In this document: positions 1,159 through 60,595 of the stretch, piece after piece
Layout of the letters: every line of letters starts with the position of its first letter
Numbering within the stretch: position 1 is the stretch's first letter
Assembly: GCA_963666345.1 (NCBI GenBank)
Contig: OY762721.1
Span: 2,688,001-2,752,000, forward strand
DNA from: Desulfatiglandales bacterium
GTDB taxonomy: Bacteria > Desulfobacterota > DSM-4660 > Desulfatiglandales > Desulfatiglandaceae
Direction of reading: 5' to 3'
Length of the DNA: 64,000 nt
Program-made: the position numbers and the translations under genes
The notes under the pieces: generated by a model
What the model saw: only the letters and a program-made list of their open reading frames with translations
The model's database searches: none
Told to the model about the DNA's origin: nothing

Positions 1159-1426
1159 GGATCTTTTCCCGATTAGTTGGTCGATCAGCATATGGTTTTT
1201 GCACGGTGTGATTTGTCAGGATTCGAAGGCTCAAGGGGCCAAGGGTCCGAGTGAAAAACAAAGAAAAATTTAAGAGGGTTCTAATTTTTAGTCGATAGAA
1301 TATTCACTTACACAAACAAAAAAAGACTCGATTTTACAGTAATCACATGTTCAAATATCGCCTAATTGAACCCTCGGACCCTGGAATCCTTGAACCCTTT
1401 TCGTACAACTAAATCGGAGAAGAACC
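1159..1426. mobile_element. Family-1 non-autonomous element, short copy (268 bp)
   Basis: Left end GGATCTTTTCCCGATTAGTTGG, right end CAACTAAATCGGAGAAGAACC; flanks ATAAATCG (1151-1158) and ATAAATAG (1427-1434); GGCTCAAGGGGCCAAGGG and CCCTGGAATCCTTGAACCC arms. Confidence 0.8.
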
Positions 1427-1455
1427 ATAAATAGAAAAAAGACAGGAGAAAAAGT

Positions 1456-1932
1456 ATGTCAGAAGAGATCAAGGAGAAAATAGAAGAGACCTCAAAGGAT
1501 GTCACCGAAGCCGGTACCAAGGAGCCTGAAAATGAGGCCGCACAAGAGGTCCCTGCTCGGGAAAATAAGGAAACGGATGCGAAAGACTCGGATAAAGGGC
1601 CTGATGCGGAAGAAAAACCCCTTGATAAGATGACGGTTGTGGAGCTGAGGGAAATCGCCAAGGAGATCCCCGGTGTAACCGGTGTGCATGCCATGAAAAA
1701 AGAGGAAGTGCTGGCCACAATAAAGGAATACAGGGGCATAGTGGATGAGAAACCTGTCAGGAAAAAGGTGGCCAAAGTAGGGTTGAGCATTAAGGAACTG
1801 AAGGAAAAAACGGCTCAGCTGAGACAGGAAAAAGAATCCGCCAGAGCGGCAAAGGATATGAAAAGGGTCGGTATGCTGCGCCGCCGCATCAACCGCCTCA
1901 AAAAGAAGACAAGAAAGGCCATACAGGCATAG
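1456..1932 (+). CDS. Rho-termination-factor N-terminal-like domain protein
   Basis: Acidic N-terminus, then LDKMTVVELREIAKEIPGVTGVHAMKKEEV and a basic C-terminus; AGGAG RBS. Confidence 0.7.
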   Translation: MSEEIKEKIEETSKDVTEAGTKEPENEAAQEVPARENKETDAKDSDKGPDAEEKPLDKMTVVELREIAKEIPGVTGVHAMKKEEVLATIKEYRGIVDEKPVRKKVAKVGLSIKELKEKTAQLRQEKESARAAKDMKRVGMLRRRINRLKKKTRKAIQA

Positions 1933-1950
1933 GCCGTGGAATAAACCCAG

Positions 1951-1992
1951 GACAGGTCCCGGCGCTCAAGGCCCGGGGCCTGTCTTTGTTTT
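1951..1992 (+). terminator. Rho-independent terminator
   Basis: GACAGGTCCCGG...CCGGGGCCTGTC hairpin followed by TTTGTTTT. Confidence 0.65.
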
Positions 1993-2003
1993 CTGCTCCT
2001 GAT

Positions 2004-2744
2004 ATGGATAAAGATAGAAGCGATAAAGAAAGAAAAGGGACAGTCGCGATAATACCCGCTGCGGGTGAGGGTATCCGCATGGGAAGCAAAAAGGCAAAGC
2101 AGTTCCTGGAACTGAAGGGAATGCCGATCGTCGCTTCCACCCTGAGGGTTTTTGACCTTTGTCCGATTATTGACGCTGTTATTCTGGTAGTGCCGGAATC
2201 TGATGTGGGTTACTGTATCAGGGATATAGTTGAAAAATATGAACTTGCCAAGGTTGAAAAGGTGGTTCCGGGCGGGAAAAGAAGACAGGATTCCGTTAGA
2301 AAGGGGCTTGAGGCCTCGGCCGGAAAATATGAACTGGTTCTGATCCATGACGGGGTCAGGCCGTTTGTGAGCGAGGGGGTTATTAAAAATGTAATCCAGT
2401 CGGCAAGGGTCCATGGCGCGGCAAGTGCAGGTCTGCCCGTAAAGGAAACCATCAAGGAAGTAAGTGAGAGCGGCGATGTGATACGGACCTATGACCGTAA
2501 ATTTGTGTGGGCCATTCAGACCCCTCAGGCCTTTTATTATGAGGAGATAATGAAGGCCCATCAGAAGGCCGTTATGGAGGCCTGGGAAGATGCGACTGAT
2601 GACTGTCAGCTGATGGAAAAAATGGGGGTGACGGTCAGGGTGGTGGAAGGATCGGAAGAAAATATCAAGGTAACTACACCCCATGATCTTATCATGGCAA
2701 GGTTCCTTACGGAGCACAAGACTTTTATTAGACCAAGAGACTGA
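2004..2744 (+). CDS. ispD: 2-C-methyl-D-erythritol 4-phosphate cytidylyltransferase
   Basis: AIIPAAGEGIRMG, KQFL, RQDSV, LIHDGVRPF, QTPQAF, TDD and NIKVTTPHDL motifs. Confidence 0.93.
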   Translation: MDKDRSDKERKGTVAIIPAAGEGIRMGSKKAKQFLELKGMPIVASTLRVFDLCPIIDAVILVVPESDVGYCIRDIVEKYELAKVEKVVPGGKRRQDSVRKGLEASAGKYELVLIHDGVRPFVSEGVIKNVIQSARVHGAASAGLPVKETIKEVSESGDVIRTYDRKFVWAIQTPQAFYYEEIMKAHQKAVMEAWEDATDDCQLMEKMGVTVRVVEGSEENIKVTTPHDLIMARFLTEHKTFIRPRD

Positions 2745-2750
2745 AGAAAG

Positions 2751-3674
2751 ATGAAACTACGAATCGGAACCAGAAAAAGCAAACTGGCGTTAGCCCAGAG
2801 TAGGTGGGTGAAACAGAAGATAGAATCAAGGCATCCTGGTGTGGATGTCGAACTTGTAAGGATTCAAACCACGGGTGACAAAATCCTTGATTCACCTCTG
2901 AATGCAATCGGCGGCAAAGGCCTTTTCGTCAAGGAGATCGAAGATGCGCTGATCTCAAAAAAGGTGGACCTCGCCGTTCACAGCATGAAGGATGTGCCTG
3001 CCCGGCTTCCAGATCGACTGAGCCTTTCAATATTTCCTGAAAGGGAAGATCCTTTTGATGCCTTTCTTTCAGTCGCGGTTGTGGACATAGGACATCTTCC
3101 TGCCGGTGCGCGGGTGGGTACCAGCAGCCTCAGAAGATCTTCCCAGTTGCTCAGCATCAGACCGGACCTTGCTATCGTGCCCTTAAGGGGAAATGTCGAC
3201 ACGCGCATAGGAAAGATGGAAGCAGGGGAAACAGATGCAATCATACTTGCCGCGGCCGGCCTCAACAGGCTCGGAATAGGTGAAAGGATCAGGTCAAAGA
3301 TACCTGCTGATGTCCTGCTTCCCGCCATAGGTCAGGGTGCCCTGGGGCTTGAGGTGAGGTCGGACGATGAGGCAACCATCGGGATGCTCAGGTTTTTAAA
3401 TCATGGGCCGACAGAGTCGGCTGTGAGGGCCGAAAGGGCCCTTTTAAAGGAGCTTGAGGGCGGTTGCCAGGTGCCTATCGCAGGATTCGCCCGGATAAAT
3501 AATGGAAAAATCAGGCTGAGGGGCATGGTGGCGGAACTGGACGGTTCAAGGATAATAAGGGATGAAGTAACAGGAGATCCGGTTGAGGCCGAGGATCTCG
3601 GAAGATCACTCGCCCACAGGCTTATCGAAGCGGGGGCGGATCGTATCCTTGCCGAGATATACGGGAGGGATTGA
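2751..3674 (+). CDS. hemC: Hydroxymethylbilane synthase
   Basis: IGTRKSKLALAQ, GKGLFVKEIE, AVHSMKDVP, GTSSLRR and LEGGCQVP motifs. Confidence 0.96.
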   Translation: MKLRIGTRKSKLALAQSRWVKQKIESRHPGVDVELVRIQTTGDKILDSPLNAIGGKGLFVKEIEDALISKKVDLAVHSMKDVPARLPDRLSLSIFPEREDPFDAFLSVAVVDIGHLPAGARVGTSSLRRSSQLLSIRPDLAIVPLRGNVDTRIGKMEAGETDAIILAAAGLNRLGIGERIRSKIPADVLLPAIGQGALGLEVRSDDEATIGMLRFLNHGPTESAVRAERALLKELEGGCQVPIAGFARINNGKIRLRGMVAELDGSRIIRDEVTGDPVEAEDLGRSLAHRLIEAGADRILAEIYGRD

Positions 3675-5230
3675 AAGTGCGGGGAAAAGGCAAAGTTTAT
3701 CTTGTAGGAGCCGGTCCCGGTGACCCGGGTCTCATGACGATAAAAGGCAGGCAGTGTCTGGAATCGGCGGATGTCGTGGTCTACGATTTCCTCGCCAACA
3801 GGACCTTTCTTGAGTACGCAGGAGAGAATGCCGAACTCATATATGTAGGCAAAAAAGGCGGGTGCCATACCATGAGACAGGAGGATATAAATTCCTTAAT
3901 AGTCGAGAAGGCAGGCATGGGACTGACCGTTGTAAGGCTTAAGGGAGGTGACCCTTTCATATTCGGAAGAGGGGGCGAAGAGGCCCAGGAACTGGTCGAG
4001 GCGGGCGTGGACTATGAGGTGGTGCCGGGCGTGACATCCGCTATCGCGGTACCGGCGTATGCCGGCATACCTCTGACTCACAGGGATTATACCTCCTCCG
4101 TGGCTTTTGTTACGGGGCATGAAAATCCGGATAAAGGGCACTCCGATATCGCCTGGGACAGGTTGGCCGATGGCGTCGGTACCCTTGTTTTTCTTATGGG
4201 TGTGGGAAATCTGGGCGGTATCGCCAAAAAACTGATGCAGCATGGTAAGGGAGCCGACACCCCTGTGGCCGTGATAATGAACGGAACCTCGAGCATGCAG
4301 AAGACGATCACGGGAAGGCTGGACAATATCAGGGAAAAGGCCGAACTGAGCGGCATCAGACCTCCGGCCATAATTGTCGTGGGAGGAGTCGCCGGTCTCA
4401 GGGATCAGCTAAAATGGTTTGAAAAAAGGCCCCTTCTGGGCAGAAGAATAGTCGTGACAAGGGCCAGGGAGCAGGCAAGCGGGTTTTTGAAAAGACTCGG
4501 CGAACTGGGCGCGGAATGCATAGAATTCCCCACTATCGAAATCCTTCCGGCACCGGACTGGAACAGACTTGATGAAGCGATTAGAGCGCTTGATAAATAT
4601 GACTGGCTTCTCTTTACCTCGGTAAACGGGGTGAAATATTTTTTCATGCGGCTTAAGGCATGCGGAAAAGATGTCAGGGATCTCAGCGGCATCAGGATAG
4701 GCGCGATAGGTCCCAAGACCGCTGAAATTTTAAACAACATGGGCATAATGCCGGATATAATTCCGGATGAATACAGGGCTGAAGCCCTGGTTGAACAGCT
4801 GGGACAAGCCGGTATAACGGGTGCCCATATCCTTATCCCGAGGGCTGAAAAGGCAAGAGAAATATTGCCTGAGGAACTGAGGAAAAAAGGAGCCAATGTC
4901 GATGTGGTAACCACTTACAGGACAGTGCTGCCGGATCGGGACAGGGAGGAGATAGTTAAAATGTTTGAGAGGGGTCAGATAGACATGGTGACCTTTACGA
5001 GTTCTTCGACTGTAAAAAATTTCTGTGAGATCTTTTCTTCCAGTAAGACGGTATTGAAAAAGTGGATGTCCTCCGTTTCCGTCGCCAGTATCGGTCCCAT
5101 AACCTCAGAAACGGCTGTCTCAGAGGGCTTTTCAGTTGATCTGGTCCCCGCCGAATACACAATAGAGGCCCTGACTGAAAGCATCGTGGAATTTTTCGGA
5201 TCACCAGCTGATCCTACTAAAATACCTTGA
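3671..5230 (+). CDS. cobA/hemD: Fused uroporphyrinogen-III C-methyltransferase / uroporphyrinogen-III synthase
   Basis: VYLVGAGPGDPGL and RLKGGDPFIFGRGGEE, then a HemD domain (VVTRAREQ, FTSVNGV, TFTSSSTV). Confidence 0.93.
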   Translation: MKVRGKGKVYLVGAGPGDPGLMTIKGRQCLESADVVVYDFLANRTFLEYAGENAELIYVGKKGGCHTMRQEDINSLIVEKAGMGLTVVRLKGGDPFIFGRGGEEAQELVEAGVDYEVVPGVTSAIAVPAYAGIPLTHRDYTSSVAFVTGHENPDKGHSDIAWDRLADGVGTLVFLMGVGNLGGIAKKLMQHGKGADTPVAVIMNGTSSMQKTITGRLDNIREKAELSGIRPPAIIVVGGVAGLRDQLKWFEKRPLLGRRIVVTRAREQASGFLKRLGELGAECIEFPTIEILPAPDWNRLDEAIRALDKYDWLLFTSVNGVKYFFMRLKACGKDVRDLSGIRIGAIGPKTAEILNNMGIMPDIIPDEYRAEALVEQLGQAGITGAHILIPRAEKAREILPEELRKKGANVDVVTTYRTVLPDRDREEIVKMFERGQIDMVTFTSSSTVKNFCEIFSSSKTVLKKWMSSVSVASIGPITSETAVSEGFSVDLVPAEYTIEALTESIVEFFGSPADPTKIP

Positions 5231-6026
5231 GGAGATATTTTTCTCTGTCAAAATTGTCGTAAGATTCCGTGCCTGGCAGATCCAGACATTCCCTGGCAAA
5301 CCTGAACACCCTTTCATAGTCAAAGACCATGCCCATGTTTTGGTAATATTTTTCCAGGATTCTCTTAGGCCTCGAAGTCTCAAACTTACACTCCCTGGTG
5401 ATAAAGGGAATTTTCAGGGATTTCAGGACCTCCAGGATGTTGTTTGAATTGTACCTTATAAGAGGCCTGTAGATCTTAAAGCCTTCTTTCATCTCGAGTA
5501 GGGGATAAAATCGTTGGGCTGTTGTAAGGAATCTGTCGCTCCCTGAATGACCCTTAGGCGAACTTCCCAGCTTCTCTGAAAGAATTTCCTCCAGAGAATA
5601 GCTGACTATGTCCCAGAGGCTGTAACTGGTAACAATTATAAGGTCCTTCCAATCCTTAACCAGTTTTGAAAGCACAATGTTGAGCACCTCTTTTCTCAGC
5701 TCCTGGCAGACAATACAGGGCGTGTCCGTGTTTTCAATCTTTGAGTCCGTATCAGCCAGTTTGTGCCAGTTTACCGTCACTCCTCTTCTTTCCCAGTATG
5801 AACCGATCTTTTCCATTTCTTCGTCAGGATAACGATGAACGGGAAAAATACCGGCGTGAACCTCAAGTTCAAACCGGAGTTCTTTTGATGCTTTCAACAT
5901 GAAATCAAGGGCAAGAGAAGAATCTTTACCACCTGAAAAGAGCATGAAAAATTGTTTATTTCTCAAGTCCTCGAGTGTCTTGATTTGACTTTCTTTCCAA
6001 CTTTGATATGCCTTGCAAGAGGTCAT
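5217..6026 (-). CDS. PP-loop ATPase, TtcA/Ctu1-like (adenine nucleotide alpha hydrolase)
   Basis: LFSGGKDS PP-loop, PCIVC and RPL motifs; start set at ATG 6026 after AGGGAG; lacks a complete second CxxC. Confidence 0.75.
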   Translation of the reverse strand: MTSCKAYQSWKESQIKTLEDLRNKQFFMLFSGGKDSSLALDFMLKASKELRFELEVHAGIFPVHRYPDEEMEKIGSYWERRGVTVNWHKLADTDSKIENTDTPCIVCQELRKEVLNIVLSKLVKDWKDLIIVTSYSLWDIVSYSLEEILSEKLGSSPKGHSGSDRFLTTAQRFYPLLEMKEGFKIYRPLIRYNSNNILEVLKSLKIPFITRECKFETSRPKRILEKYYQNMGMVFDYERVFRFARECLDLPGTESYDNFDREKYLLKVF

Positions 6027-6082
6027 GCGTATCTCCCTGTCAGCTTCGGTTATGAAGTTTTCTCTTAGTGCCTGAAGGTTTC

Positions 6083-7228: not shown

Positions 7229-7229
7229 C

Positions 7230-12174: not shown

Positions 12175-12244
12175 ATGCACATTTTTATGTGCATTGATGC
12201 ACATTTTTATGTGCATTGATGCACATTTTTATGTGCATCAATGC
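12175..12244. repeat. Three tandem 22-bp palindromic units, probable enhancer (UAS) sites
   Basis: ATGCACATTTTTATGTGCATTG x3 (third ends CA); each unit contains ATGCACAT-N4-ATGTGCAT. Confidence 0.9.
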
Positions 12245-12339: not shown

Positions 12340-12515
12340 GTTTCAGGTTCAGGATAACTGTAAATCGGATTTTGACCCTACGGGTCTATGGGTCCTCTTG
12401 TAAAGGCAAGTTGGAGAAGAACCGGAATAAGATGTAAAAATGATGGTAGCTTTTTTGTCATACTAATACCTGGAGCGGTTTGATTGCCGTAACATCTTGG
12501 AAATCAAAGAGAATC

Positions 12516-13865
12516 ATGAAAAATAAAAAAGCTGTAGTTCTTGTTGTTGACGATGAAAAAGGGGTGCGTCAGTCTTTTAAGATGGTCTTAAAGGATGATT
12601 ACACTGTTTTTCTGGCTGAAAGCGAAGAAGAGGCGATCGATCTCTTTAAAAAGAAATCGATTGATCTGGTCCTCCTTGATATCCGGTTGCAGGATGCCGA
12701 TGGGATAGAGTTGTTGCAGAAATTCAGGGAGCTGGATCCCAATGTCGAGATTATAATGGTTACCGCTGTTAAGGAGATACAGACCGCGGTAAGGGCGATC
12801 AAGCTGGGGGCCTATGAGTATGTAATAAAACCGTTCAATGTCGACGATGTGTTGACCATCATAAACCGGGCGCTTGAAAAACGGAGTCTTTTAAGACAAT
12901 TAAGCTATCTGAAAGGGGAACTCGAGCACTTCAAGCCGTTTGAAAAGATGGTGGGAAATGACGTAAAGATGAGAGAGGTCTTTGAACTTATATCGTCTGT
13001 GGCTGAAAGCAGCGGTTCGGTCCTTATTCAGGGTGAGAGCGGAACGGGAAAGGAACTGGTGGCCAGGGCCATTCATAATCTGAGCCCGAGAAGGGACCAG
13101 CCTTTTGTTGTTATCAACTGTGCCGCCATACCAGCGACTCTGATGGAGAGTCAACTCTTCGGCCATACCAAGGGCGCGTTCACGGGTGCGACCAGTACAA
13201 CAACCGGAAAGATGGAGATCGCAAACAGGGGAACGGCCTTCCTGGATGATGTCGATACCCTTGATACAGGCATGCAGGCAAAGCTTTTAAGGGTACTTCA
13301 GGAAAAGGAGATCGAGAGACTCGGCAGCACAAAACTCATAAAGGCGGACGTACGTTTCGTGGCCGCTTCCAACAAGGATCTCGAAAATTATATTGAAGAG
13401 GGGAAATTTCGTGAGGATTTTTATTACAGATTAAACGTGTTTCCGGTCAAGGTGCCGCCTCTAAGGGAACGTATATCCGATATACCCTTACTCATTGATC
13501 ATTTTCTCAAGACTAATGCAAGAAACGGTAAGATGGCTAAAAAGAAATTTTCAAAAGGTGCCATAAAGATATTGAAGCAGTATGAGTGGCCGGGAAATGT
13601 AAGAGAATTGCAAAACATGGTCGAAAGACTTTCAACGGTAACCAAGGGCCCTGTAATTCATTCCGCAGACCTTTCCGGATTGAGTATAACGAAAAAGGAG
13701 CCTGAGAAAAAAAATCTGAAAAATGCCGTCTACGATTTTGAAAAACAGTATATTATCGCGGCCCTTGAGCAGGCGGATGGAAGCAAGAAAAAGGCCGCTG
13801 AACTGCTTGGAATTCATAGAAATACACTCCTAATAAAGATGACTCAGTACGATCTCCAAACCTGA
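12516..13865 (+). CDS. sigma54-dependent response regulator (REC-AAA+-HTH, NtrC/AtoC family)
   Basis: VLVVDDE, DIRL, GESGTGKE, GAFTGA, WPGNVREL and Fis-type HTH; Walker B reads FLDD. Confidence 0.93.
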   Translation: MKNKKAVVLVVDDEKGVRQSFKMVLKDDYTVFLAESEEEAIDLFKKKSIDLVLLDIRLQDADGIELLQKFRELDPNVEIIMVTAVKEIQTAVRAIKLGAYEYVIKPFNVDDVLTIINRALEKRSLLRQLSYLKGELEHFKPFEKMVGNDVKMREVFELISSVAESSGSVLIQGESGTGKELVARAIHNLSPRRDQPFVVINCAAIPATLMESQLFGHTKGAFTGATSTTTGKMEIANRGTAFLDDVDTLDTGMQAKLLRVLQEKEIERLGSTKLIKADVRFVAASNKDLENYIEEGKFREDFYYRLNVFPVKVPPLRERISDIPLLIDHFLKTNARNGKMAKKKFSKGAIKILKQYEWPGNVRELQNMVERLSTVTKGPVIHSADLSGLSITKKEPEKKNLKNAVYDFEKQYIIAALEQADGSKKKAAELLGIHRNTLLIKMTQYDLQT

Positions 13866-22028: not shown

Positions 22029-22582
22029 GGATCATCTCCAAAAGAGTTGATCTAAATGAAGGATTCTTTGCTCCGCTTACGCTTCGCTCAGCCCCACTGC
22101 TTCGCAGCGGGTTCCCGGGTTCGAGGGGTCAAGGGGCCAAGGGTTCGAGTGAAATGCTTAAAGATCATAGGCAGTTAAACGTTCGGCAAAAACCGTATAC
22201 GCCTTGTTTACATATCTATAAAGAAACGAAAAGTTTTCCAAAAGATGAGCGGTACGGTTTGACCTCCCAAATCAGAAGATCTGCGGTTTCCATACCATCG
22301 AATATCGCCTAAAGGTATGGGAGGAAAACGACTATGGAGTATGTGAGATTTCTCTATATTGCATATGGTTCAGTCTGTGAACTGGAAACCCAAGCCATGA
22401 TATCAGGTGAGTTGGGTTATGTGAAAAAAACAGAGGCTTCAGGAATTAAAAGGGCAAATCGGGGATGTCGAGACAATGCTCAAAGCGTTGATCAAATTTC
22501 TGGAAAGCAAACCATCGACTCCTTGAACCCTTGAACCCTTGAACCCTTGAACCCTTTATCCTAACTAATTGGGAGAAGAACC
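22029..22582 (+). mobile_element. Family-1 non-autonomous element (554 bp) carrying a four-helix-bundle pseudogene
   Basis: Left end GGATCATCTCCAAAAGAGTTG, right end AACTAATTGGGAGAAGAACC; CCCTTGAA tandem repeats; flanks not a clean duplication. Confidence 0.85.
22154..22526 (+). pseudogene. Four-helix-bundle protein (TIGR02436 / 23S IVS-like) with a nonsense codon and a frameshift
   Basis: MLKDHRQLNV...FPKDERYGLTSQIRRSAVSIPSNIA*...RFLYIAYGSVCELETQ. Confidence 0.88.
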
Positions 22583-22638
22583 AAAATTATAAACAGTTAA
22601 ACGTTCGGTAAAAATCGTATATGCCTTGTTTGCATATC

Positions 22639-22796
22639 TAGTGTTCATCCGTAAATCAAGATTTATGGAATCACGTTATAGGCAATCAGCTCTCAGCAGT
22701 CAGCAAAACATCAGGAATATCAATTTATTGGTTCTCTGCCGATGGCTGACGGCTGAAAGCAACATCCGGAAATGATCCATTTCCGGATGGGAACTA
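22639..22796. mobile_element. Family-2 MITE-like element
   Basis: Ends TAGTGTTCATCCG and CGGATGGGAACTA; internal 7-nt repeats CAGCTCTCAGCAGTCAGC and GCTGACGGCTGAAAGC. Confidence 0.7.
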
Positions 22797-30969: not shown

Positions 30970-31097
30970 GAGGTAAGTAGAAGGGTTCAAGGATTCAAGG
31001 GGCCAAGGGGTCGAGGTTTCCAGGGAAATGGAGCGAAGCGACTCCACAATTTTAGGCACTTATAATTTTAGTCACTTTAGTCACTCCTGAAACTTTC

Positions 31098-32046: not shown

Positions 32047-32204
32047 AGTGCTCATCCATAAGTTAAGATTTATCTGCTCACGCTATCAGTTATCAGCCCT
32101 CAGCCTTCAGTAAAATATATGGAGTATCAATTCTCGGCCCACTTGCTGACAGCTAACGGCTGAAAGCCTTTATCCGGAAATAGGCCATTTCCTGATGGCC
32201 ACCA
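32047..32204. mobile_element. Family-2 MITE-like element
   Basis: AGTGCTCATCC...GATGGCCACCA; GCTATCAGTTATCAGCCCTCAGCCTTCAG and GCTGACAGCTAACGGCTGAAAGC. Confidence 0.65.
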
Positions 32205-44713: not shown

Positions 44714-46435
44714 ATGATTAGCCGCCTTATAAAAAATGAAAAAGACTATGAAATGGCACTATCACGCATTGAACAACTCATGGATGCCAAATCCGGTACC
44801 ACTGAGATGGATGAGTTGGAACTGCTGACAGCGCTTGTGGAAATGTATGAAGAACGACACTTTCCGATTAGCCCGCCGGATCCTATTGATGCAATAAAAT
44901 TTCGTATGGAACAGCTAAGATTGGTTCAAAAGGACATGATTCCTTATATCGGTACAAAAAGTAAGGTCTCTGAAGTTTTAAATGGTAAAAGGCCTCTTAC
45001 CTTGGCCATGATGAGATCTCTGAATAAAATCTTGGGCATTTCTGCGGAGGTACTGCTGAAGGAACCTGGTGCTGATTTTCCGGACAAGATTCAAGACCTG
45101 GAGTGGTCCAAATTCCCATTAATTGAAATGGCAAAACGCGACTGGATTCCAATGCCGGATGACATAAAGGAAAAAGCCGAAGAATTGATGCGTGATTTTA
45201 TCGAACAGGCTGGTGGGCTGGATACCGTTCGGAAACCATGTTTCCGTCAGGGAAAAAGAGGCAGGTATAATTCTAAGATGGACTTATTTGCCCTTACCGC
45301 TTGGTGTATTCGTGTGCAGGCCATTGCCCGAAAAAACCCCTTAAAAACGAAATATGTCAAGGATTTAATAAAATTGGATCATCTCCAAAAGAGTTGGTCT
45401 AAATGAAGGATTGGAGGGGTCAAGGGGCCGCGGGTTCGAGTGAAAAGCTTAAAGATCATAGGAAGTTAAACGTTCGGTAAAAAAAATTGTATACACCTTG
45501 TTTGCATATGTATAAAGAAACGAAATGTTTTTTTAAAGATGAGCAATACTGTTTTACCTCCCGAATCAGAAGATCCGCTGTTTTCGTATCAAGGGATACC
45601 GCCTAAGGGTATGGGAGAAAAACGGCTATAGAGTATATGCAATTTTTCTTTATTGCATATGGTTTAGCCTGTGAATTGGAAACCCGGGACATGATATCAG
45701 TTGGCCTGGGTTATTTGAAAGAAGAGCGGCTTCAGAGATTAAGAAGGGAAATAAGGGATGTCGGGGCAATGTCCAAAGCGATGATCAAATCCCTGGAAAG
45801 AAAACCCTTGAATCCTTGGACCCTTGGACCCTCTTCGACAACTAAGTTGGAGAAGAACCATAAAATTGAGCTTTTTGAAGGACGTCGCACGGTTGAGTTA
45901 TTTTGATAACGGTCCTCTTCTTGCAAAAGAATATCTTGAGAAACATGGAATACATCTGATTGTTGTTCCCCATCTTCCAAAAACCTGCATTGACGGCGCT
46001 GCTATCCTGCTGCCGGGTGAGACTCCGGTCATCGGTCTAACTCTTCGCTATGATAGAATTGATTATTTCTGGTTTTGCCTTTTGCATGAGCTCGCCCATG
46101 TTTCAAAACATCTATCGGCATCCGATCGACTTATTATAGATGACCTGGATCTCCGAGGGAAAAAGGTTGAAACAGAAGATATAATCGAGAAGGAAGCAGA
46201 TGAAATGGCCCTTAATGGACTTATCCCAAAACGGATTTGGGCCGGAAACCAGATGTCTGGCAAAGCACCAACAGCGGAAGTATACGCCTCAGCGGAAAAA
46301 TTAAAGATCCATCCTGCCATTATTGCCGTAAGAATCCGTTTCGAACGGAACAACTATAAGTTGCTATCCAGGCATGTCGGCAATAAACAGATTCCAAAAC
46401 ATTTTGCCGATAGTTTTATTGCAAAGGCCTCGTGA
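44714..46435 (+). pseudogene. higA: HigA-type HTH plus ImmA/IrrE (HExxH) protein interrupted by a family-1 element
   Basis: PDPIDAIKFRMEQ...VSEVLNGKRPLTL and WFCLLHELAHV; removing 45376-45867 restores KDLIKLSFLKDVARLSY. Confidence 0.9.
45376..45859 (+). mobile_element. Family-1 non-autonomous element (484 bp) with a perfect 8-bp target duplication
   Basis: ATAAAATT at 45368-45375 and 45860-45867; ends GGATCATCTCCAAAAGAGTTGG and CAACTAAGTTGGAGAAGAACC; decayed four-helix-bundle gene inside. Confidence 0.92.
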
Positions 46436-46601: not shown

Positions 46602-46754
46602 TAATACATGACCATGAAATTTATGGACTCATGCTATCGGTTATCAGCCCTCAGCTTTCAGCAAAACATATGGGATATCAGCTTGTTGGCAACTTGCTGA
46701 TAGCTAAAGGCTTAAAGCAACATCCAGAAATGCGGTATTTATGAATGTACACTA
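46602..46754. mobile_element. Family-2 MITE-like element (decayed)
   Basis: GCTATCGGTTATCAGCCCTCAGCTTTCAGC and GCTGATAGCTAAAGGCTTAAAGCAACATCC...ACACTA. Confidence 0.6.
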
Positions 46755-46976
46755 AACTAATATCTAAACGGACTGTGCCATGCCTCGACCTTTTACCATG
46801 TCAAGGCAAGAGGCAATGATCGTAAAGCTGTTTTCAAAAGCAAGCGGGCAAGGGAGTCAGGAGCCCCATGGACGGCTTATGAGGTGCCAGGCGAATGGAT
46901 CTTGTGCCGCGATTTTGCAATCTATAGGTGTTATGAAGAAAACATATAAACATTGTTGAATCAAAAAAGGAAAAAT

Positions 46977-48640: not shown

Positions 48641-48850
48641 AGTCAAGACTGCCTTTGGCCGTTGAGAATAGTTTCCCGGGGCATTTTATCATGTCATTGC
48701 CAGAGGAAATGAACGTAAAGGCCTTTTCAAAAGCAAGCGGACAAGGGAACAAATCGAACCGGACAGAAAACTGAAGCGGTGAGTTCTCACCATTGAGAAT
48801 AATATAAGGGATTCAGGTTTCAAGACCCGGCCCCTTCGCCCCTGGAACCT
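48641..48850 (+). repeat. RAYT-derived about 200-bp direct repeat, copy A
   Basis: Encodes decayed FPGAFYHVIARGNERK; aligns with 49839-50043. Confidence 0.65.
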
Positions 48851-49838: not shown

Positions 49839-50043
49839 ATGGCAAGTCTGCCGTTGACAGTTGAGAATAGTTTGCCCGGGCATTTCACCATGTCATTGGT
49901 AAGGGAAATGAGCGCAATGCTCTTTCCAAAATCTAGCGAGCAGGCAAACAGTTCGAACCGGACGGAAAGCTGAAAAAGAGAGTCCTCACCATTGAAAAGA
50001 AGATTAGAGGTTCAGGTTCCAAGCCCTGATCGTTTCGCCCCTT
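49839..50043 (+). repeat. RAYT-derived about 200-bp direct repeat, copy B
   Basis: GTTGAGAATAGTTT...CATGTCATTG...CGAACCGGAC...CTCACCATTGA shared with copy A. Confidence 0.65.
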
Positions 50044-50153
50044 GATGTACTTTGAAATTCTTTTGACAGTGAGACGTTTTGGCGTATGATCTATGTCAAA
50101 AAAAACTGTAGTTTTGAATAACCTGTCCACATAAATGATAGGAACAGAGCAAA

Positions 50154-53301: not shown

Positions 53302-53379
53302 TGGGTGCCCCTTAGCCCCCATAAGAGGCAGTCGGATATGAGCCTGTCCATCACAATTGTTTAACAGGAGAGTATAATT

Positions 53380-53953: not shown

Positions 53954-54601
53954 ATGGGGTTTGATCAAAAAAAGCGGTACAGGCCCAACCTGAATGAAAT
54001 CGCTTATGAAGAAATCAAGAACATGATCTTTGTCGGGGAACTCGTCCAGGGAGAAAGGATCCTTCTGGACAAGATGGCTGAAAGGATGAATCTCAGTATC
54101 ACCCCGGTCAGAGAGGCGCTGAACAAACTGGCGCAGGAGGACCTGATCCATATGACCCCCCGCACCAGCTACGAGGTTGTGCGCCTTGACAAAGACGACA
54201 TAGTCGATATCCTGGAACTGCGGGAACTGCTGGAGATATTTGCCCTTCGCTCGGCAGGGGATAATATCAAGAACTTTCCTGTAGAAGAGACGCGGGCCAT
54301 GATTGTCAAGATCTACCGAACCGAAGATTATATGCAGTTTATCGATGCTGACATTATTCTTCACAAGGCGATAATTTCCATTGCCAGAAATCAGAAGCTC
54401 AAGAAACTGTTTGATCTCATTTATAACGGCATCCGCATCCTTGCCATCCCGTCTGCAAAGGTTCCGGGCCGTATCGAGAAGAGCAACCAGGAGCACCTGG
54501 CACTGTTGAAGGAAATCGGAGAGGGAAATATCGAAAAGGCAGCTGAGACTCTGACCCACCACATACGGCAGGTAAAGACAATCCTGCTTGAGGGATTATG
54601 A
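53954..54601 (+). CDS. GntR/FadR-family regulator (FCD domain)
   Basis: SITPVREALNKLAQE; D..LH and EH motifs. Confidence 0.92.
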   Translation: MGFDQKKRYRPNLNEIAYEEIKNMIFVGELVQGERILLDKMAERMNLSITPVREALNKLAQEDLIHMTPRTSYEVVRLDKDDIVDILELRELLEIFALRSAGDNIKNFPVEETRAMIVKIYRTEDYMQFIDADIILHKAIISIARNQKLKKLFDLIYNGIRILAIPSAKVPGRIEKSNQEHLALLKEIGEGNIEKAAETLTHHIRQVKTILLEGL

Positions 54602-55064
54602 GAAAAGAGGACGTACCAGCGGAAGTGACCCAGGGGCAGTCGGATTATTTTTCCCAATCTTAGCCGCATTGCTTCAGTACCAAAGGAGCTTTGACGGCCG
54701 CTACAAAACTATACATGAATTTCGCCTCACACCAGCACCAATCTTAATATCCTGATAATAAAACTTTTTTTCATCAGCATCTCTATTTTTACTGTTTCCC
54801 CGCCCTGCAAAAAAAATAAATAATTTTATTGACATCGTATATCTTATAAAATATAGGAAATAAAAAATAAGGTTGATGGAGGTCCTGAATCGAGCGGGAA
54901 CCCTCTTCTTAATTACACTTGTATAAAGCGCCTTTTCAGGGTGATTGATAAGAAATTACCTCATGAAAGCTACCCCGCCGAATGGATCCCCGCAGTTGGA
55001 ACAATGGCATAATGGTTGGAGCATATCATTAAACAAGGTCAACAAAAGAGGAGGAGATGAAAAA

Positions 55065-56126
55065 ATGATTAATGCTAGAAAAGGAATCTGGTCAGGTCTG
55101 GTTGGTGTTGTTGTTATAGCCCTTTGCCTGGGGCTGACAGCCATGCCCGCCTCGGCCAAGAAGCTCATCAAGCTGGCCCACGTTGATACGGATGACCCCA
55201 CTATTTCGTCTGATCATGCGTTTTCGGTTGTTTTCAAAAACCTCGTGGAAAGCGGAACCAACGGTGAAATAGAGGTCAAGATCTATCCCGCAAGCGTGCT
55301 GGGTAAGGAACGGGAATCGATGGAGATGGTTCAGAGAGGCCTCATTCAGGGCTATCTGGCCACAACAGGCGCCATGGCCACCTTCTGGCCCCTGGTGGGA
55401 GTCCTTGATACCCCATTTGCCATTCCCAACTACTCGGTCGCCTATGATGTTTTTGACGGCCCGTTCGGGGATAAACTTAAGACATCCATAGAGGAAGCGG
55501 TAAAGGTGAAATGCCTGGAAGTTACGGGCGCAGCGGGATTTTTCTGCTTTACCAACAGCAAGAAACAGATCAGGACCGTGGACGATGTCAAGGGTATCAA
55601 GTTTCGCACAATGTCTATGCCCAGCCATATCGCATTTTTCAGCTCCATGGGGGCATCTGCCATCCCGATCTCCTGGTCGGAGGTCTTCACCGCGATGCAG
55701 ACCGGCGTGGTTGACGGACACCACAACCCGCTCGGCCAGATCATTTATGCAAAGATCTACGAAGTCCAGAAGTACCTCACACTTACTAACCACATATTTT
55801 CAACACACTATTTTATTATGAATGATGCCTTTTTCAAGGGGCTGACCCCGGAGCAGAAAAAGGTTGTCCTTGATGCGGCCCGCGTAGCCAAAGTTGCATC
55901 ACGGGGTATACCCAGGACCTATCTGTCAACAGACAAGGGGCTTCCATTCCTTGCCAAGCATATGGATGTGTACCAGCCTACCTTGGAGGAGCAGAAAACC
56001 TTTGCAAATGTGGCTATTCCTGCCATGCAGAAGTGGGTTAAGGAAAATCTGGGCGAAGAAGGTGCGGCCCTGCAGGATGATTTTCTTAAGTCCATTGCAG
56101 ATTCCGTAAAGAAACTGGGTTATTAG
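55065..56126 (+). CDS. dctP: TRAP transporter substrate-binding protein
   Basis: Signal peptide; KGIKFRTM and SEVFTAMQTGVVDG motifs. Confidence 0.92.
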   Translation: MINARKGIWSGLVGVVVIALCLGLTAMPASAKKLIKLAHVDTDDPTISSDHAFSVVFKNLVESGTNGEIEVKIYPASVLGKERESMEMVQRGLIQGYLATTGAMATFWPLVGVLDTPFAIPNYSVAYDVFDGPFGDKLKTSIEEAVKVKCLEVTGAAGFFCFTNSKKQIRTVDDVKGIKFRTMSMPSHIAFFSSMGASAIPISWSEVFTAMQTGVVDGHHNPLGQIIYAKIYEVQKYLTLTNHIFSTHYFIMNDAFFKGLTPEQKKVVLDAARVAKVASRGIPRTYLSTDKGLPFLAKHMDVYQPTLEEQKTFANVAIPAMQKWVKENLGEEGAALQDDFLKSIADSVKKLGY

Positions 56127-56148
56127 AGAACACAGCCTTAGCTCGTAA

Positions 56149-56183
56149 CATCCCCCCTTTGTCAAGGATGAAAAAGGGGGATG
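56149..56183 (+). terminator. Intercistronic hairpin after dctP
   Basis: CATCCCCCCTTT...AAAGGGGGATG. Confidence 0.5.
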
Positions 56184-56187
56184 ATTT

Positions 56188-56727
56188 ATGAAAGGGAAAA
56201 GTATGGATTCAGCGGAACAAAACAGCTTCGTCCGCAAGGCCGAACAGCTGGCCACGATCATAGAAAAGCTCACAGCGGTGCCATGCATCCTTATCGGTGC
56301 TGTGATGGTGGTTACCGTCATCAGCGGGGTATTCGCCCGTTATCTTCTGAAAAACCCAATGCCCTGGACAGAGGAGGTGGCGCGATTCTGTATGAACTGG
56401 GTGGCGCTTTTGGGTGCCTCCATAGTCGTCCGACACCGGGGCCATCTGGGATTGCTCTACTTTATCCGGAAAGTTCCCTTGCCCTTGCAGCGTCTAACCA
56501 AACTAATAATGGACATCCTGATAATGTTCTTCCTTTATCTTCTGACGGTGGAGGGATTTAAGATGGCGATGGCAGCCAAGGCACAGGTCGAGCCTACATC
56601 CGGTATCTCGATGACCTATATTTTGATTTGCGTTCCCCTGGCAGGTCTGCTGATGATAATCCAGACCGGTATTCAGATGTTTGTTGATGCATTTCAATGG
56701 GGTACATCCAAGTCACCCTATGTCTAG
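56188..56727 (+). CDS. dctQ: TRAP small permease
   Basis: VFARY...WTEEVAR...RHRGHL; 4 TM helices. Confidence 0.9.
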   Translation: MKGKSMDSAEQNSFVRKAEQLATIIEKLTAVPCILIGAVMVVTVISGVFARYLLKNPMPWTEEVARFCMNWVALLGASIVVRHRGHLGLLYFIRKVPLPLQRLTKLIMDILIMFFLYLLTVEGFKMAMAAKAQVEPTSGISMTYILICVPLAGLLMIIQTGIQMFVDAFQWGTSKSPYV

Positions 56728-56745
56728 TAGTCGGAAAGGAAAATC

Positions 56746-58032
56746 ATGACCTCGATTATCACCATCTTTTTCTTTGTGTTTCTAGTTCTGGGGATGCCTA
56801 TCGCCTTTGTGCTGGGAGTCACATCACTGGTGGCCATCATTAAAATGGGGGTTCCGGATCTGGTTCAGCTCATCCCCCTTAAAGTCTATAACGGAATAGA
56901 TATTTATCCGATGATGGCGATGCCCCTCTTTATTTTAGCAGGGGATTTCATGAACAGGACCGGGATCACTACCCAGGTGGTCACCTTTGCGCTCCGCATT
57001 GTGGGTCATCTTAAGGGCGGGCTTGCCCACGCCAATATCGTGGCAAGTATCATCTTTGCCGGAATCACCGGAAGCGCTGTGGCCGATGCCGCCGCCCTGG
57101 GTACCCTGCTTATCCCGGCCATGGAAAAAGAGGGATATCCGAGACCCTTTGCCGCCTCTATTGTTACGGCCGCATCTGTCATCGGACCGATTATTCCGCC
57201 TTCCATGATAATGGTAATCTACGGCTCCTTCATGAGTGTTTCAATTGCAGGACTTTTTGCTGCGGGTATAGTCCCCGGGATCCTGATGGCAACTGCCCTG
57301 ATGTTTTCCGCTTATCGGACGGCATCAAAGAACAACTATCCGTGCACGGAGCGACGGGCCACGGTGCGCGAGATGCTGGTTTCCCTGAAAAAGGCCTCTG
57401 TGGCGATTATGATGCCGGTTATAATACTGACCGGGATTTTGGGCGGGTTTTTGACTCCGACTGAAGCGGCTGCAGCAGGTGTGTTCTACGCCTTTATCGT
57501 TGGCTTTTTTGTGTATCGAAACCTTACGCTCAAGGACCTGTGGGAATGTCTGGGCAATATGACCTTTGTTACGGCAGTGGTATTCCTGATTCTGGCCACG
57601 GCAGCCATATTCGGCTGGCTGCTGGCCTCCGAGCAGATCCCACAAAAGGTGGCCGGCCTGATCCTGTCTATCAGTGACAACAAATATTTCGTTCTTCTCA
57701 TCATTAACTGCGTCCTGATCATTGTGGGATGTTTCATGGACCAGACAGCTGCTCTCATCATACTGGCGCCGGTGCTGGGGCCTCTGGCCCATCAGGTGGG
57801 TGTCCACCCGCTTCATTTCGGCATAGTCATGTGTCTGAATCTGGTCCTGGGCCTGGTGACGCCGCCCCTTGGGGCGTGCCTGTTCACTGTATGCAGTATA
57901 GGAAAGCTGCAGATAGAGGATGTGGTCAAACCGCTCCTGCCTATGATAGGAGCCCTGCTTGTCGTGCTGTTGCTGGTCACCTATGTGCCGGCGATCTGTC
58001 TGACTATTCCACGGTGGCTTGGATTCGCATAG
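56746..58032 (+). CDS. dctM: TRAP large permease
   Basis: GMPIAF, GSAVADAAA, IIPPS, TPTEAA and TPPLG motifs. Confidence 0.93.
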   Translation: MTSIITIFFFVFLVLGMPIAFVLGVTSLVAIIKMGVPDLVQLIPLKVYNGIDIYPMMAMPLFILAGDFMNRTGITTQVVTFALRIVGHLKGGLAHANIVASIIFAGITGSAVADAAALGTLLIPAMEKEGYPRPFAASIVTAASVIGPIIPPSMIMVIYGSFMSVSIAGLFAAGIVPGILMATALMFSAYRTASKNNYPCTERRATVREMLVSLKKASVAIMMPVIILTGILGGFLTPTEAAAAGVFYAFIVGFFVYRNLTLKDLWECLGNMTFVTAVVFLILATAAIFGWLLASEQIPQKVAGLILSISDNKYFVLLIINCVLIIVGCFMDQTAALIILAPVLGPLAHQVGVHPLHFGIVMCLNLVLGLVTPPLGACLFTVCSIGKLQIEDVVKPLLPMIGALLVVLLLVTYVPAICLTIPRWLGFA

Positions 58033-58100
58033 AAAGATCTTATAAGCAGTTTTAAATAACCGACCCATTTAGGGTTTGAAAAAATCAAGGAGACATTGCC

Positions 58101-58940
58101 ATGAGCAATTACTATTCACCCAAGGGAGATCTGCCAGCACAGACCGACCTTATGACCGGCCGTGCGGTGTTCACAGAGGCCTACGCCGTTATTCCGAAAG
58201 GAGTAATGGCACATGCGGTTGCCAGTTATCTGCCGCATTGGGAAAAGAGCCGTGTATGGATAATAGCGCGTCCTTTGTCCGGTTTTGCAGAAACCTTTTC
58301 ACAGTACATCATGGAGGTGGCCCCGGGCGGAGGGAGCGATCGGCCCGAGCCTGAAAAAGAGGCCGAATGCATCATCTTTGTCACAGAGGGAAATCTTACT
58401 CTTCACCTGGGCGATGATATTCATGAGATGGGTGTCGGCGGCTACGCATACATACCGGCAGGATCCGACTGGCGCCTGTGGAACTCGGGGTCGGAACCGG
58501 CATGTTTCCACTGGGTGCGTAAACTTTACGAGGTCGTGGACGGAGTCGATCTGCCGGATGCTTTTGTGACGAATGAAAAAGACGTGACCCCCAACGTCGT
58601 GCCTGATACAGAAGGCCGCTGGGCTGCCACCACCTTCGTAGAGCCAGACGATGTGCGCCACGACATGCATGTCAATATTGTCACCTTTAAGCCGGGCGGT
58701 GTGCTGCCGTTTGAGGAGACGCATGTGATGGAGCATGGCCTCTATGTGCTTTCAGGCAAGGCGGTGTACAAGCTCAACCGCGATTGGGTTGAGGTGGAAG
58801 CCGGTGATTTCATGTGGTTGCGTGCCTTCTGCCCGCAGGCGTGCTATGCGGGAGGGCCTGAACTGTTCCGTTATTTACTATATAAGGATGTGAACCGCCA
58901 CGCAAAACTGCACGGCGTGTTGGATGGAGTCGTGCGATGA
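58101..58940 (+). CDS. allE: (S)-ureidoglycine aminohydrolase (bicupin, YlbA/AllE)
   Basis: ETHVMEHGLYVL, CPQAC and YLLYKDVNR motifs. Confidence 0.85.
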   Translation: MSNYYSPKGDLPAQTDLMTGRAVFTEAYAVIPKGVMAHAVASYLPHWEKSRVWIIARPLSGFAETFSQYIMEVAPGGGSDRPEPEKEAECIIFVTEGNLTLHLGDDIHEMGVGGYAYIPAGSDWRLWNSGSEPACFHWVRKLYEVVDGVDLPDAFVTNEKDVTPNVVPDTEGRWAATTFVEPDDVRHDMHVNIVTFKPGGVLPFEETHVMEHGLYVLSGKAVYKLNRDWVEVEAGDFMWLRAFCPQACYAGGPELFRYLLYKDVNRHAKLHGVLDGVVR

Positions 58941-59425
58941 ATAAGGTTATTATTGAGCCACTGACGGCTGAGGCCTTCAGCTCTTTCGGAAATGTTGTTG
59001 AGGCTGCTGGAGAGCCTGATTATACTATCAACCAGGGCCTTTGCGTTCGCTATCATGACCGCGCAAAGATGGATTTCGGTACAGGCGGACGCTGCGGCCT
59101 GAGTCTGTTTCTGGGCGAACCGCTGACATTGCCGATAAAGCTTGAGATGGTGGAGTGTCACCCTGAAGGCAGCCAGGCCTTCATTCCTATTCATCAGAAC
59201 CCATTTCTGGTGATAGTCGCGCCCAGTGATGCGAACGGTCTTCCAGGAGCGCCCCGAGCCTTTCTGACCTCGCCCGGACAATGTGTCAATTATTACGCCG
59301 GAACCTGGCACGGGGTGTTGATGCCTCTTCACACACCCGGCCTGTTCGCGGTCGTTGACCGGATCGGAAACACTCCGAATCTGAAGGAGCACTGGTTCGA
59401 CGAGCCCTTCACTGTGGAAGCCTAA
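58937..59425 (+). CDS. allA: Ureidoglycolate lyase
   Basis: EPLTAEAFSSFG, INQG, HPEGSQAFIP, GTWH and VVDR motifs. Confidence 0.88.
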   Translation: MNKVIIEPLTAEAFSSFGNVVEAAGEPDYTINQGLCVRYHDRAKMDFGTGGRCGLSLFLGEPLTLPIKLEMVECHPEGSQAFIPIHQNPFLVIVAPSDANGLPGAPRAFLTSPGQCVNYYAGTWHGVLMPLHTPGLFAVVDRIGNTPNLKEHWFDEPFTVEA

Positions 59426-59772
59426 ACCTAAGGCTAAATTGTCAACCCTGTGCGGCTGCGTGATTTTCGGAAGCCGGGTCGGCAGAATGAGGAAATTACC
59501 AAGACGGCATCTCATTATCGTGGATAAAGGGGCTTTTAATCTGAGATAACCGGGTGCCGGGTGAAATAATAAATTGTAATAAGTGGATAAGGTGGCAATA
59601 TGAGGCCTGGAACAGGTCATGTATTGCCATCTTTGTTTTAAAAAAGGGCGTCACAAGTTGCAGGTGACGGCAAGAAGGGGTATGTTACGGGGGAGGCCCA
59701 AAAGCTGATATTTAAATACCGGGGCCCTAAACCCATGTATTCAAATCATATCGAGACCGCGTGTTCTCAAAA

Positions 59773-59985
59773 ATGAGAGAAATTAAGATTTCAGTTGAGC
59801 CTATTGAGCTCTATAAGATCCTGAAGTTTGAAAATATGGTTGCCAGCGGCGGCGAAGCAAAATATTTGATTTCCGAAGGCCGGGTTATGGTAAATGGAAA
59901 GGTTGAAACCAGAAAAAGAAAGAAGATGTTTTCAGGTGATGTCGTTGAATTTGGAGAAGAAAAAATTCGTGTACAGGTCAAATGA
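59773..59985 (+). CDS. S4-domain RNA-binding protein (YbcJ/YaaA)
   Basis: IELYKILK...SGGEAK...VNGKVETRKRKK. Confidence 0.88.
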   Translation: MREIKISVEPIELYKILKFENMVASGGEAKYLISEGRVMVNGKVETRKRKKMFSGDVVEFGEEKIRVQVK

Positions 59986-60061
59986 AAATAAGTCGAAGGG
60001 TCGCCCATTTAAAATTTTGTAAAACAACAAACAGCTCTCCACTGGAACAAACAGAATTATC

Positions 60062-60137
60062 ATGAGTATAAGCCTGGGTTTTGTAGATGTTCGCGATGTG
60101 GCTGCTCACATTTTGGCAATGGAAAATTATTATATCC
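60062..60137 (+). pseudogene. Small fragment of an NAD-dependent epimerase/reductase
   Basis: GFVDVRDVAAHILAME motif, cut by the element at 60138. Confidence 0.45.
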
Positions 60138-60595
60138 GGATCATCTCCAAAAGAGTTGGTCTAAATGAAGGATTCGAGGGTTCAAGGGGCCGCGGGTTCG
60201 AGTGAAAAGCTTAAAGATCATAGGCAGTTAAACGTTAGACAAAAATTGCATACACCTTGTTTGCATATGGTTCAGCCTGTGAATTGGAAACCCGGGACAT
60301 GACATCAGCTGACCTGGGTTATTTGAAAAAAGAGCGGCTTCAAAAATTAAGAAGGGAAATAGGGGATGTCGGGGCAATGTTCAAAGCGATGATCAAATCC
60401 CCGGAAAGAAAGCCCTTGAAACCGGGAACCCGCTGCGAAGCAGTGGGACTGAGCGAAGCGTAAGCGGAGCAAAGAAACCGGGAACCCGCCCTGAGCTGGC
60501 CGAAGGATGGGACTGCGCGAAGCGTAAGCGAAGCAAAGAATCCTTGAATCCTTGACTCCTTGGACCTTCTTCGACAACTAAGTTGGAGAAGAACC
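60138..60595 (+). mobile_element. Family-1 non-autonomous element (458 bp) with a perfect 8-bp target duplication
   Basis: TTATATCC at 60130-60137 and 60596-60603; same termini as the 45376 copy; internally deleted four-helix-bundle gene. Confidence 0.92.

Follow-up and report, generated by a model that had tools for sequence, protein, structure and literature searches.

Mobile insertion cassettes (MICs) and MITEs (miniature inverted-repeat transposable elements) are described, in the part of the source accessible to us, as a known class of non-autonomous derivatives of insertion sequences (ISs) (PMC3129680). Meanwhile, genes for four-helix-bundle proteins of the PF05635/TIGR02436 type are present in multiple copies in many genomes, and how they spread has been conjectural ever since their discovery in rRNA intervening sequences. 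The accessible text of PMC4990558 describes an intervening sequence in the 23S rRNA gene of Coxiella burnetii, in which tandem heptamers precede the S23p gene, a 28-bp terminal stem leads to excision by RNase III, the open reading frame (ORF) is decaying, and the RNA, not the protein, is judged to be the relevant part; it also cites ORF-bearing 23S intervening sequences in Leptospira and others and quotes earlier proposals in which such inserts were regarded as remnants of transposons or as mobile elements (PMC4990558). Here, we examined this gene family in a 64,000-nt stretch of the genome of a Desulfatiglandales bacterium (assembly GCA_963666345.1, contig OY762721.1, forward-strand positions 2,688,001–2,752,000; hereafter, “the window”). 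A first-pass annotation made from the sequence alone had described four copies of a family with ISL3-like ends, in which a four-helix-bundle gene lies between inverted 8-nt repeat arms. We consider it very likely that these four copies are non-autonomous transposons of the ISL3 family, consisting of a MIC and its shorter, MITE-like deletion derivatives.

The four copies and their parts are all oriented alike, on the + strand, and occupy positions 1159–1426 (copy 1, 268 bp, with both ends and both arms), 22029–22582 (copy 2, 554 bp), 45376–45859 (copy 3, 484 bp), and 60138–60595 (copy 4, 458 bp). Every copy starts with GGATC(A/T)TCTCC and finishes with GGAGAAGAACC; the left end reads GGATCATCTCCAAAAGAGTTGG, and the right end, reverse-complemented, reads GGTTCTTCTCCAACTTAGTTG. 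An inverted-repeat search of the window copies delimited terminal inverted repeats of 22–27 nt with 73–77% complementarity. Inside these ends, all four copies have G-rich 8-nt repeats on the left and the complement of those repeats on the right, which constitute inverted arms of 20–40 nt that are 71–85% complementary; the tandem units returned by Tandem Repeats Finder included CCTTGAAC (4.5 copies at 22521–22556) and AGGGGCCA (2.5 copies at 22124–22143). The layout can be followed in copy 3, in which an A-type left terminal inverted repeat (A at positions 3 and 6; 45376–45397, starting with GGATCATC) is followed by the left arm of G-rich 8-nt repeats (45406–45442, repeat family D4), a four-helix-bundle pseudogene (45448–45807), the right arm of CCTTGRAY-type repeats complementary to the left arm (45805–45834), and a right terminal inverted repeat of the T type (T at the same positions; 45839–45859, finishing with GAAGAACC). 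Copies 3 and 4 are flanked by perfect 8-bp duplications (ATAAAATT at 45368–45375 and 45860–45867, and TTATATCC, respectively; 8/8), and the 8-mers flanking copy 1 (ATAAATCG at 1151–1158 and ATAAATAG at 1427–1434) match at 7/8 positions. The coordinates, ends, arms, and flanking 8-mers given for the four copies in the first-pass annotation were therefore confirmed, as were its two perfect duplications and its single 7/8 duplication. Copy 2, for which it gave no flanks, is bounded by TTTTTTAT and AAAATTAT, which agree at 4/8 positions and do not constitute a duplication. Immediately to its right lies a 58-nt piece of the gene start of another copy (22583–22640, + strand, 86% identical to 22161–22218, repeat family D12), which indicates rearrangement or nesting at this site.

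Copy 3 has demonstrably inserted into a gene of approximately 409 amino acids. The host gene (44714–46435, + strand) is split by the element into an N-terminal half (44714–45375) and a C-terminal half (45860–46435), and its homologues at seven loci (L057–L063), taken from as many genomes outside the genus but within the family, each consist of one open frame of 403–438 amino acids. When four of the seven homologues were aligned to the two halves around copy 3, the N-terminal half corresponded to residues 1–220 and the C-terminal half to residues 209–409 of the 409-aa homologue L057. In other words, the gene that copy 3 splits is uninterrupted in the homologues of relatives, as expected if copy 3 entered a site that was empty before. 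Independent evidence for the boundaries came from public metagenome contigs derived from other copies, which diverge from the window exactly at 45375/45376 and 45859/45860.

The family extends far beyond the window, and the further copies with duplications that the first-pass annotation called for are numerous. The genome is a single contig of 4.16 Mb (52% A+T), and when an nhmmer profile of the termini was run over all of it and the hits were paired into elements, 52 paired elements of 87–603 bp were obtained. The flanking 8-mers of these elements matched at 8/8 positions in 27 cases, 7/8 in 14, and 6/8 in 2; 41 elements are thus flanked by 8-mers matching at 7/8 or better. When the comparison was shifted 10 nt outwards as a control, none of the 52 reached 6/8, and permuted flanks predicted only approximately 0.6 perfect pairs. 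The perfect duplications are 83% A+T, compared with 52% for the genome. A further 45 terminus-like hits were unpaired at E<1, a few of which are opposite-strand readings of a palindromic core. Two copies are identical at all positions (100%), and a second pair is identical at 99.2%; since the members of each pair occur at different sites with different duplications, the family was active recently. No transposase is encoded inside any of the 52 elements, and PF05635 is the only coding similarity detected in them. Of 41 restored sites, 8 contained an open frame of at least 150 amino acids; this is a rough test, some of these frames are possibly spurious, and homologues confirmed the frame for copy 3 only. 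Furthermore, the same ends and arms with decayed genes were present in four other genera of the order, with a complete element at 6 of the 12 loci examined, and a genome from a different family of the phylum (G311) contained a 474-bp element that is 70% identical to the one intact copy described below and has flanks matching at 7/8. The association between ends and cargo is therefore old and has crossed lineages.

An ISL3 transposase with matching ends, the partner that the first-pass annotation had postulated, was found in genomes of the same order. In a relative (G013), a remnant of an ISL3 transposase different from the one resident in the present genome lies directly inside an end that matches the family right end. 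The 55-aa C-terminus of this remnant has a match in 28 of 209 genomes of the order, and at all 10 of the transposase C-terminus loci examined, among 30 such loci, the family right end was present with one to three mismatches. Two whole ISL3 elements were recovered: one of 1343 bp with a perfect ACAAAAAT duplication in genome G169 (L019, 1484–2826), and one of 1344 bp in genome G036 (L015, 297–1640). The ORFs of both elements match Zn_ribbon_ISL3, HTH_Tnp_ISL3, and DDE_Tnp_ISL3 (in numerical order, PF01610, PF13542, and PF14690). Against the family consensus, the left end is identical at 19/21 positions (G036) and the right end at 20/21 (G169) and 19/21 (G036). The elements of G169 and G036 also share the asymmetry of the family, with A at positions 3 and 6 of the left end and T on the right, and 47 of the 52 elements of the present genome have one A-type and one T-type end, as does the matching IS. 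Another genome (G167) contains the transposase ends together with a cassette of 369 bp, which has the same left end and a perfect AAATTTAA duplication. An ISL3 element with matching ends thus exists in this order, and it was probably the transposase of such an element that moved the cassettes.

Similarity to PF05635/TIGR02436 was detected in 28 of the 52 elements, and the reading frame is intact in only one of them. This copy, at genome positions 3089063–3089543 with a perfect CTACTTTA duplication, encodes a 120-aa product scoring 136.1 bits against PF05635 (cut-off 33.8) and 136.2 bits against TIGR02436 (cut-off 24). None of the four window copies contains an intact gene. Copy 1 has no detectable four-helix-bundle gene. 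In copy 2, the pseudogene (22154–22514) has TAA in place of the Glu codon of a conserved AEG motif; in copy 3, it has two in-frame stops, one of which is this shared stop; and in copy 4, the gene remnant (60210–60415) has an internal deletion. Reading through these stops or the deletion, copies 2 and 3 scored 101 and 56 bits against PF05635 (23S_rRNA_IVP), both above the cut-off, and copy 4 scored 21.6 bits, below it. In an alignment of the 21 longest copies, the Glu codon is replaced by TAA or TGA in 18 and by another sense codon in two, and is GAA in the intact copy only. Since this stop is shared by 18 of 21 copies, most copies descend from a master copy in which the gene was already dead, and spread did not depend on the protein in cis. 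The remaining 24 elements belong to shorter subfamilies, all of which have the arms and, by eye, retain scraps of the C-terminal part of the gene or other filler. The proposal that the gene travels as the cargo of an ISL3-mobilized cassette is thus supported, with the qualification that the gene is dead in 27 of the 28 copies showing it, most of them with the inherited stop; a copy with an intact ORF does occur, once genome-wide and outside the window's four. The unit that spread in this genome was the cassette and not a functional gene.

The arms, which had been described as part of the element, are present in it but have a wider distribution. Arm repeats are absent from inside the ends of the cognate ISs of G169 and G036. 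Meanwhile, all six intact four-helix-bundle genes that lie outside the transposon family in the present genome are enclosed by complementary short-tandem-repeat arms, each with its own repeat unit (z of 6.5–11.7 versus shuffles); two weak partial gene matches in this genome have no arms. Across the phylum, a four-helix-bundle gene was found in 86 of 151 sampled genomes, and at 23 of 28 testable loci from different genomes, arms were detected at z of at least 5, with units such as TCGTAAA, TTAGCTG, GGTGAAA, and GGGGTAA. The arms therefore belong to the four-helix-bundle cassette in general and not to the ISL3 element. We also observed that four four-helix-bundle matches are clustered within approximately 18 kb of the present genome (1627755–1646064), at 1627755, 1631805, 1633108, and 1645777. 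Three of these are intact genes with arm types of their own, and the match at 1633108 is weak and partial (23 bits) and has no arms; from a reading of the flanking translations, one gene of the cluster lies between apparent cheR and cheB frames.

A module of approximately 51 nt (GCTCCGCTTACGC...GGGTTCCCGG) is an optional component of these cassettes. It occurs at 45 places in the genome, 25 of which are inside paired elements; as an insertion among the arm repeats, it can occupy the left or the right side or be present as a tandem pair. In the window, it forms an insert in the left arm of copy 2 (22069–22117, repeat family D17) and occurs twice in tandem in the right arm of copy 4 (about 60420–60540). 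Most of the modules outside paired elements adjoin arm-type repeats, including those of a “naked” cassette at genome position 2066743, to which we return below. The elements at 3121593–3121978 and 1465503–1465848 of the genome have the same interior, and in one of them, the left arm has been expanded to six tandem GGGGTCGA units with the right arm unexpanded, indicating that arm repeats change copy number one-sidedly.

Taken as a non-autonomous ISL3 family, the copies would have arisen and moved as follows. An ISL3 DDE transposase acting in trans would recognize both of the dissimilar ends (left, GGATCATCTCC; right, GGTTCTTCTCC) and would insert the element into A+T-rich DNA, duplicating 8 bp. 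The cargo, a PF05635/TIGR02436 gene between complementary 8-nt repeat arrays, takes the place of the transposase gene in the same orientation. Such an arrangement could have originated when an ISL3 element or a derivative of one captured a single cassette, after which the composite multiplied. The burst in this genome followed the acquisition of the stop codon in the gene, and the source of the transposase is no longer in the assembled chromosome; the cognate transposase may have been present in the lineage until recently, or may reside on an unassembled replicon. In the transcript, pairing of the terminal repeats and the arms is predicted to produce a long stem that holds the gene in its loop; the folds predicted for copies 1 and 3, given below, pair the ends accordingly. 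This stem would serve as a substrate for RNase III, by analogy with the 23S rRNA intervening sequence of Coxiella.

Several observations weigh against this explanation. At the level of the elements themselves, 9 of the 52 pairs have flanks matching at 5/8 or fewer positions, with no convincing duplication. An empty-site allele of copy 3 was not seen: in 4 public runs of 22 (X3, X4, X6, and X7), the contigs over 44900–46300 stop inside the repeat and none bridges it, a neutral result, and the genomes compared represent other genera. The cognate transposase, found in the two genomes of the order, is not in the present genome, where tblastn detected only a resident ISL3 transposase with 35–36% identity; nevertheless, the near-identical cassette copies imply recent movement. 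When close relatives of the cognate transposase were sought by peptide pattern across 185,579 species, only the source record and relatives with 25–34% identity were returned. In addition, the transposase of the G169 and G036 elements is encoded in two frames of 231 and 176 amino acids that overlap at a run of eight A, and the change of frame splits the DDE domain at profile position 72–74 (sites at L019 1985–2040 and at L015 around 1120). This arrangement may reflect programmed frameshifting, transcriptional slippage, or damage, and the enzyme is possibly inactive. Regarding the cargo, among 29 further four-helix-bundle loci from the phylum sample, a single one had the present ISL3 ends, and packaging by ISL3 is a minority, lineage-restricted route. 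In a strict DNA-level test within the elements, the arms reached z of at least 5 in only 15 of 50, because of their limited complementarity noted above. Finally, the sense strand of the predicted stem is the more stable one in only 27 of 46 elements (mean difference, −4.2 kcal/mol; Wilcoxon p, 0.024; copies non-independent). This strand asymmetry is too weak to indicate that the stem is under selection at the RNA level, and we set that interpretation aside as not shown.

The alternative that survives best is that the cassette of gene plus arms is itself mobile by a mechanism of its own and landed in a miniature ISL3 element, so that the ISL3 ends are a secondary vehicle. Across the phylum sample, cassettes with arms and without these ends are the rule, and the “naked” cassette at genome positions 2066743–2067057 shares the arm words and the approximately 51-nt arm insert of the family without its terminal repeats. 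However, this alternative differs from the ISL3 explanation only in the order of events, and no cassette has been shown to move without the transposon. Furthermore, the arms are already inside the ends in all element subfamilies, both here and in the four other genera, and no miniature element lacking arms, of the kind needed as a landing pad, was seen. We therefore regard an independently mobile cassette as possible but doubtful.

Another explanation assigns the retention of the copies to the long hairpin, which would have a host RNA role in processing or termination between genes, with transposition being only the means of delivery. The predicted stems are significantly more stable than those of shuffled sequences: the RNA fold of copy 3 has an energy of −145.9 kcal/mol (shuffles, −123.2 ± 5.8; z, −3.9) and that of copy 1 has −78.8 kcal/mol (shuffles, −58.7 ± 4.9; z, −4.1), with the ends paired in both. 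As the first-pass annotation had suggested, the fold predicted for copy 3 pairs both ends and places the gene in the loop. Many copies lie in short intergenic spaces, including copy 1, which ends 30 nt upstream of a start codon, and copy 2, which starts 9 nt beyond a stop codon. The ends and arms are retained as the gene degenerates. For the Coxiella intervening sequence, the RNA is the part deemed relevant in the accessible text of PMC4990558. Set against these points, some copies disrupt genes, as seen for copy 3 and, by the rough test, at the restored sites with long open frames; the arms inside the elements are imperfect; and the sense-strand advantage is weak and drawn from non-independent copies. 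Retention for a host function of the hairpin is, in our judgment, unlikely as the explanation of these copies.

The remaining candidate mobilizer is the resident ISL3 of this genome; on this view, cross-recognition of the cassette ends would require no more than its outermost bases and the hairpin that adjoins them on the inner side. No ISL3 transposase other than that of this element was found in the genome, and the three 1349-bp copies of the element are 99.9% identical (1 mismatch in about 1350 aligned bases) and hence recently active, which would accord with the recent movement of cassettes for which no other source was seen in the genome. It makes 8-bp A+T-rich duplications (TCTTTTAT, ATTAAAAA, and AAGATTTT), its first eight bases (GGTTCATC) match each cassette end at 7/8 positions, and a short palindrome lies just inside both kinds of ends. 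We nevertheless rejected it as the best partner candidate and retain it as a quite improbable rival, because its ends match the cassette ends at only 10–11/21 positions, its protein is only 35–36% identical to the transposase whose ends do match, and its inverted repeats are perfect and symmetric over 24 bp (GGTTCATCCGGCAAATGCCGGGGT), in contrast to the cassettes, in which the A-type/T-type asymmetry of the other element is retained.

The non-autonomous ISL3 explanation bears on how PF05635/TIGR02436 genes spread. Given that dozens of copies have defined ends and 8-bp duplications and that relatives contain a matching ISL3 element, ordinary DNA transposition is one route. The proposal that ISL3 provides a concrete mechanism for the spread of the gene thus stands for one route, and a minority one at that: the route is restricted to certain lineages, the protein was not needed for the burst, and the arms are a separate feature. 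More broadly, and only tentatively, a four-helix-bundle gene between inverted short-repeat arms may represent one widespread class of insertable cassette, for which 23S intervening sequences would be one landing site and capture between IS ends a general route to mobility and to transfer across lineages, with the arms forming a functional, RNase III-processed RNA stem that outlasts the gene. If this were the case, it would account for many of the gene-less short-repeat hairpins in bacterial intergenic DNA.

Other features of the window were noted in the course of this analysis. At 12367–12426 (+ strand, repeat family D3, 60% identical), there is a weak candidate for a solitary right end with a decayed arm, corresponding to an unpaired hit at genome position 2700423 (E, 0.78). 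Arm-type repeats without a gene or terminal repeats occur at 30976–31075 (+ strand, repeat family D4), directly 3' of an MTHFR gene. Here, arm words of the GGGTTCAAGG type run into ACTTTAG-word arms characteristic of a different four-helix-bundle cassette, for which the cassette at genome position 1645777 is comparable, and the segment has the appearance of arms left behind without a gene. A second repeat family, approximately 100–135 nt long and without a gene, is present at 22661–22796, 32068–32167, and 46619–46754; it has inverted arms of its own, which consist of CAGC/GCTG-type words, for example TCAGCCCTCAGCCTTCAG ... GCTGACAGCTAACGGCTGAAAGC. One copy of this CAGC-word repeat is nested as cargo in an ISL3-type element at genome positions 1024559–1024796. 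Three diverged fragments with an apparent FYHV..RGNER motif are located at 46791–46855, 48684–48748, and 49883–49947 (the latter two within 48644–48846 and 49843–50045). They look like short remnants, one of them just after a copy of the CAGC-word repeat, and the motif may resemble the N-terminus of IS200-like or REP-associated tyrosine transposases. Finally, three tandem copies of a 22-nt palindrome-containing unit (ATGCACATTTTTATGTGCAT) are present at 12175–12244, upstream of a sigma-54 activator gene (12480–13865), and may constitute an operator array.

When the elements are compared with known systems, the likeness to Avd of diversity-generating retroelements (DGRs) is limited to the four-helix-bundle superfamily fold and a weak match to the Avd model. 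The intact copy scores 25.5 bits against NF033474, for which the cut-off is 80, and we rejected an identity as DGR Avd; unlike Avd systems, the elements are too small to contain a reverse transcriptase or template repeats. The similarity to ORF-bearing 23S intervening sequences is more extensive, including a PF05635 protein, a gene placed in the loop of a terminal-complement stem (predicted in the present case), short tandem repeats just upstream of the gene, and decay of the ORF with retention of the RNA structure. Unlike those sequences, the cassette has transposon ends and duplications at its borders, and neither is reported for intervening sequences in the accessible text of PMC4990558. 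The single 23S gene of this genome (606500–609522) contains neither a PF05635 match nor an element of the family, and since no copy lies within it, identification as a 23S rRNA intervening sequence was also rejected. In the full-text literature, from which most subscription journals and the original Leptospira paper are out of reach, no published element bounded by ISL3 or another IS and containing a PF05635 gene was found. Likewise, no published description of a general packaging in inverted-repeat arms was found in that literature, the nearest being the heptamers of the Coxiella intervening sequence in the accessible text of PMC4990558.

The closest relatives in terms of transposition are the ISL3 elements of G169 and G036, which share with the cassettes 19–20 of 21 end positions, the end asymmetry, 8-bp A+T-rich duplications, and a coding direction from the A-type to the T-type end. 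Unlike these elements, the cassettes have no transposase, measure 87–603 bp rather than approximately 1.34 kb, and have an interior made up of the gene and its arms. Like MICs and MITEs, they have IS-type inverted repeats, target-site duplications, no transposase, and many copies, and they would need a cognate transposase in trans; some MICs carry a passenger gene, as does the element described here. They depart from the usual MICs and MITEs in that the passenger is an intervening-sequence-type cassette with its own long inverted arms, which results in a two-tier hairpin, in that this passenger is a pseudogene in nearly all copies, and in that the cognate IS is missing from the genome. The class to which these elements belong, mobile insertion cassettes with MITE-like derivatives in the ISL3 family, is therefore a known one, and what is unusual is an intervening-sequence-type cargo with its own hairpin, through which a gene family of mysterious mobility is tied to ordinary DDE transposition.

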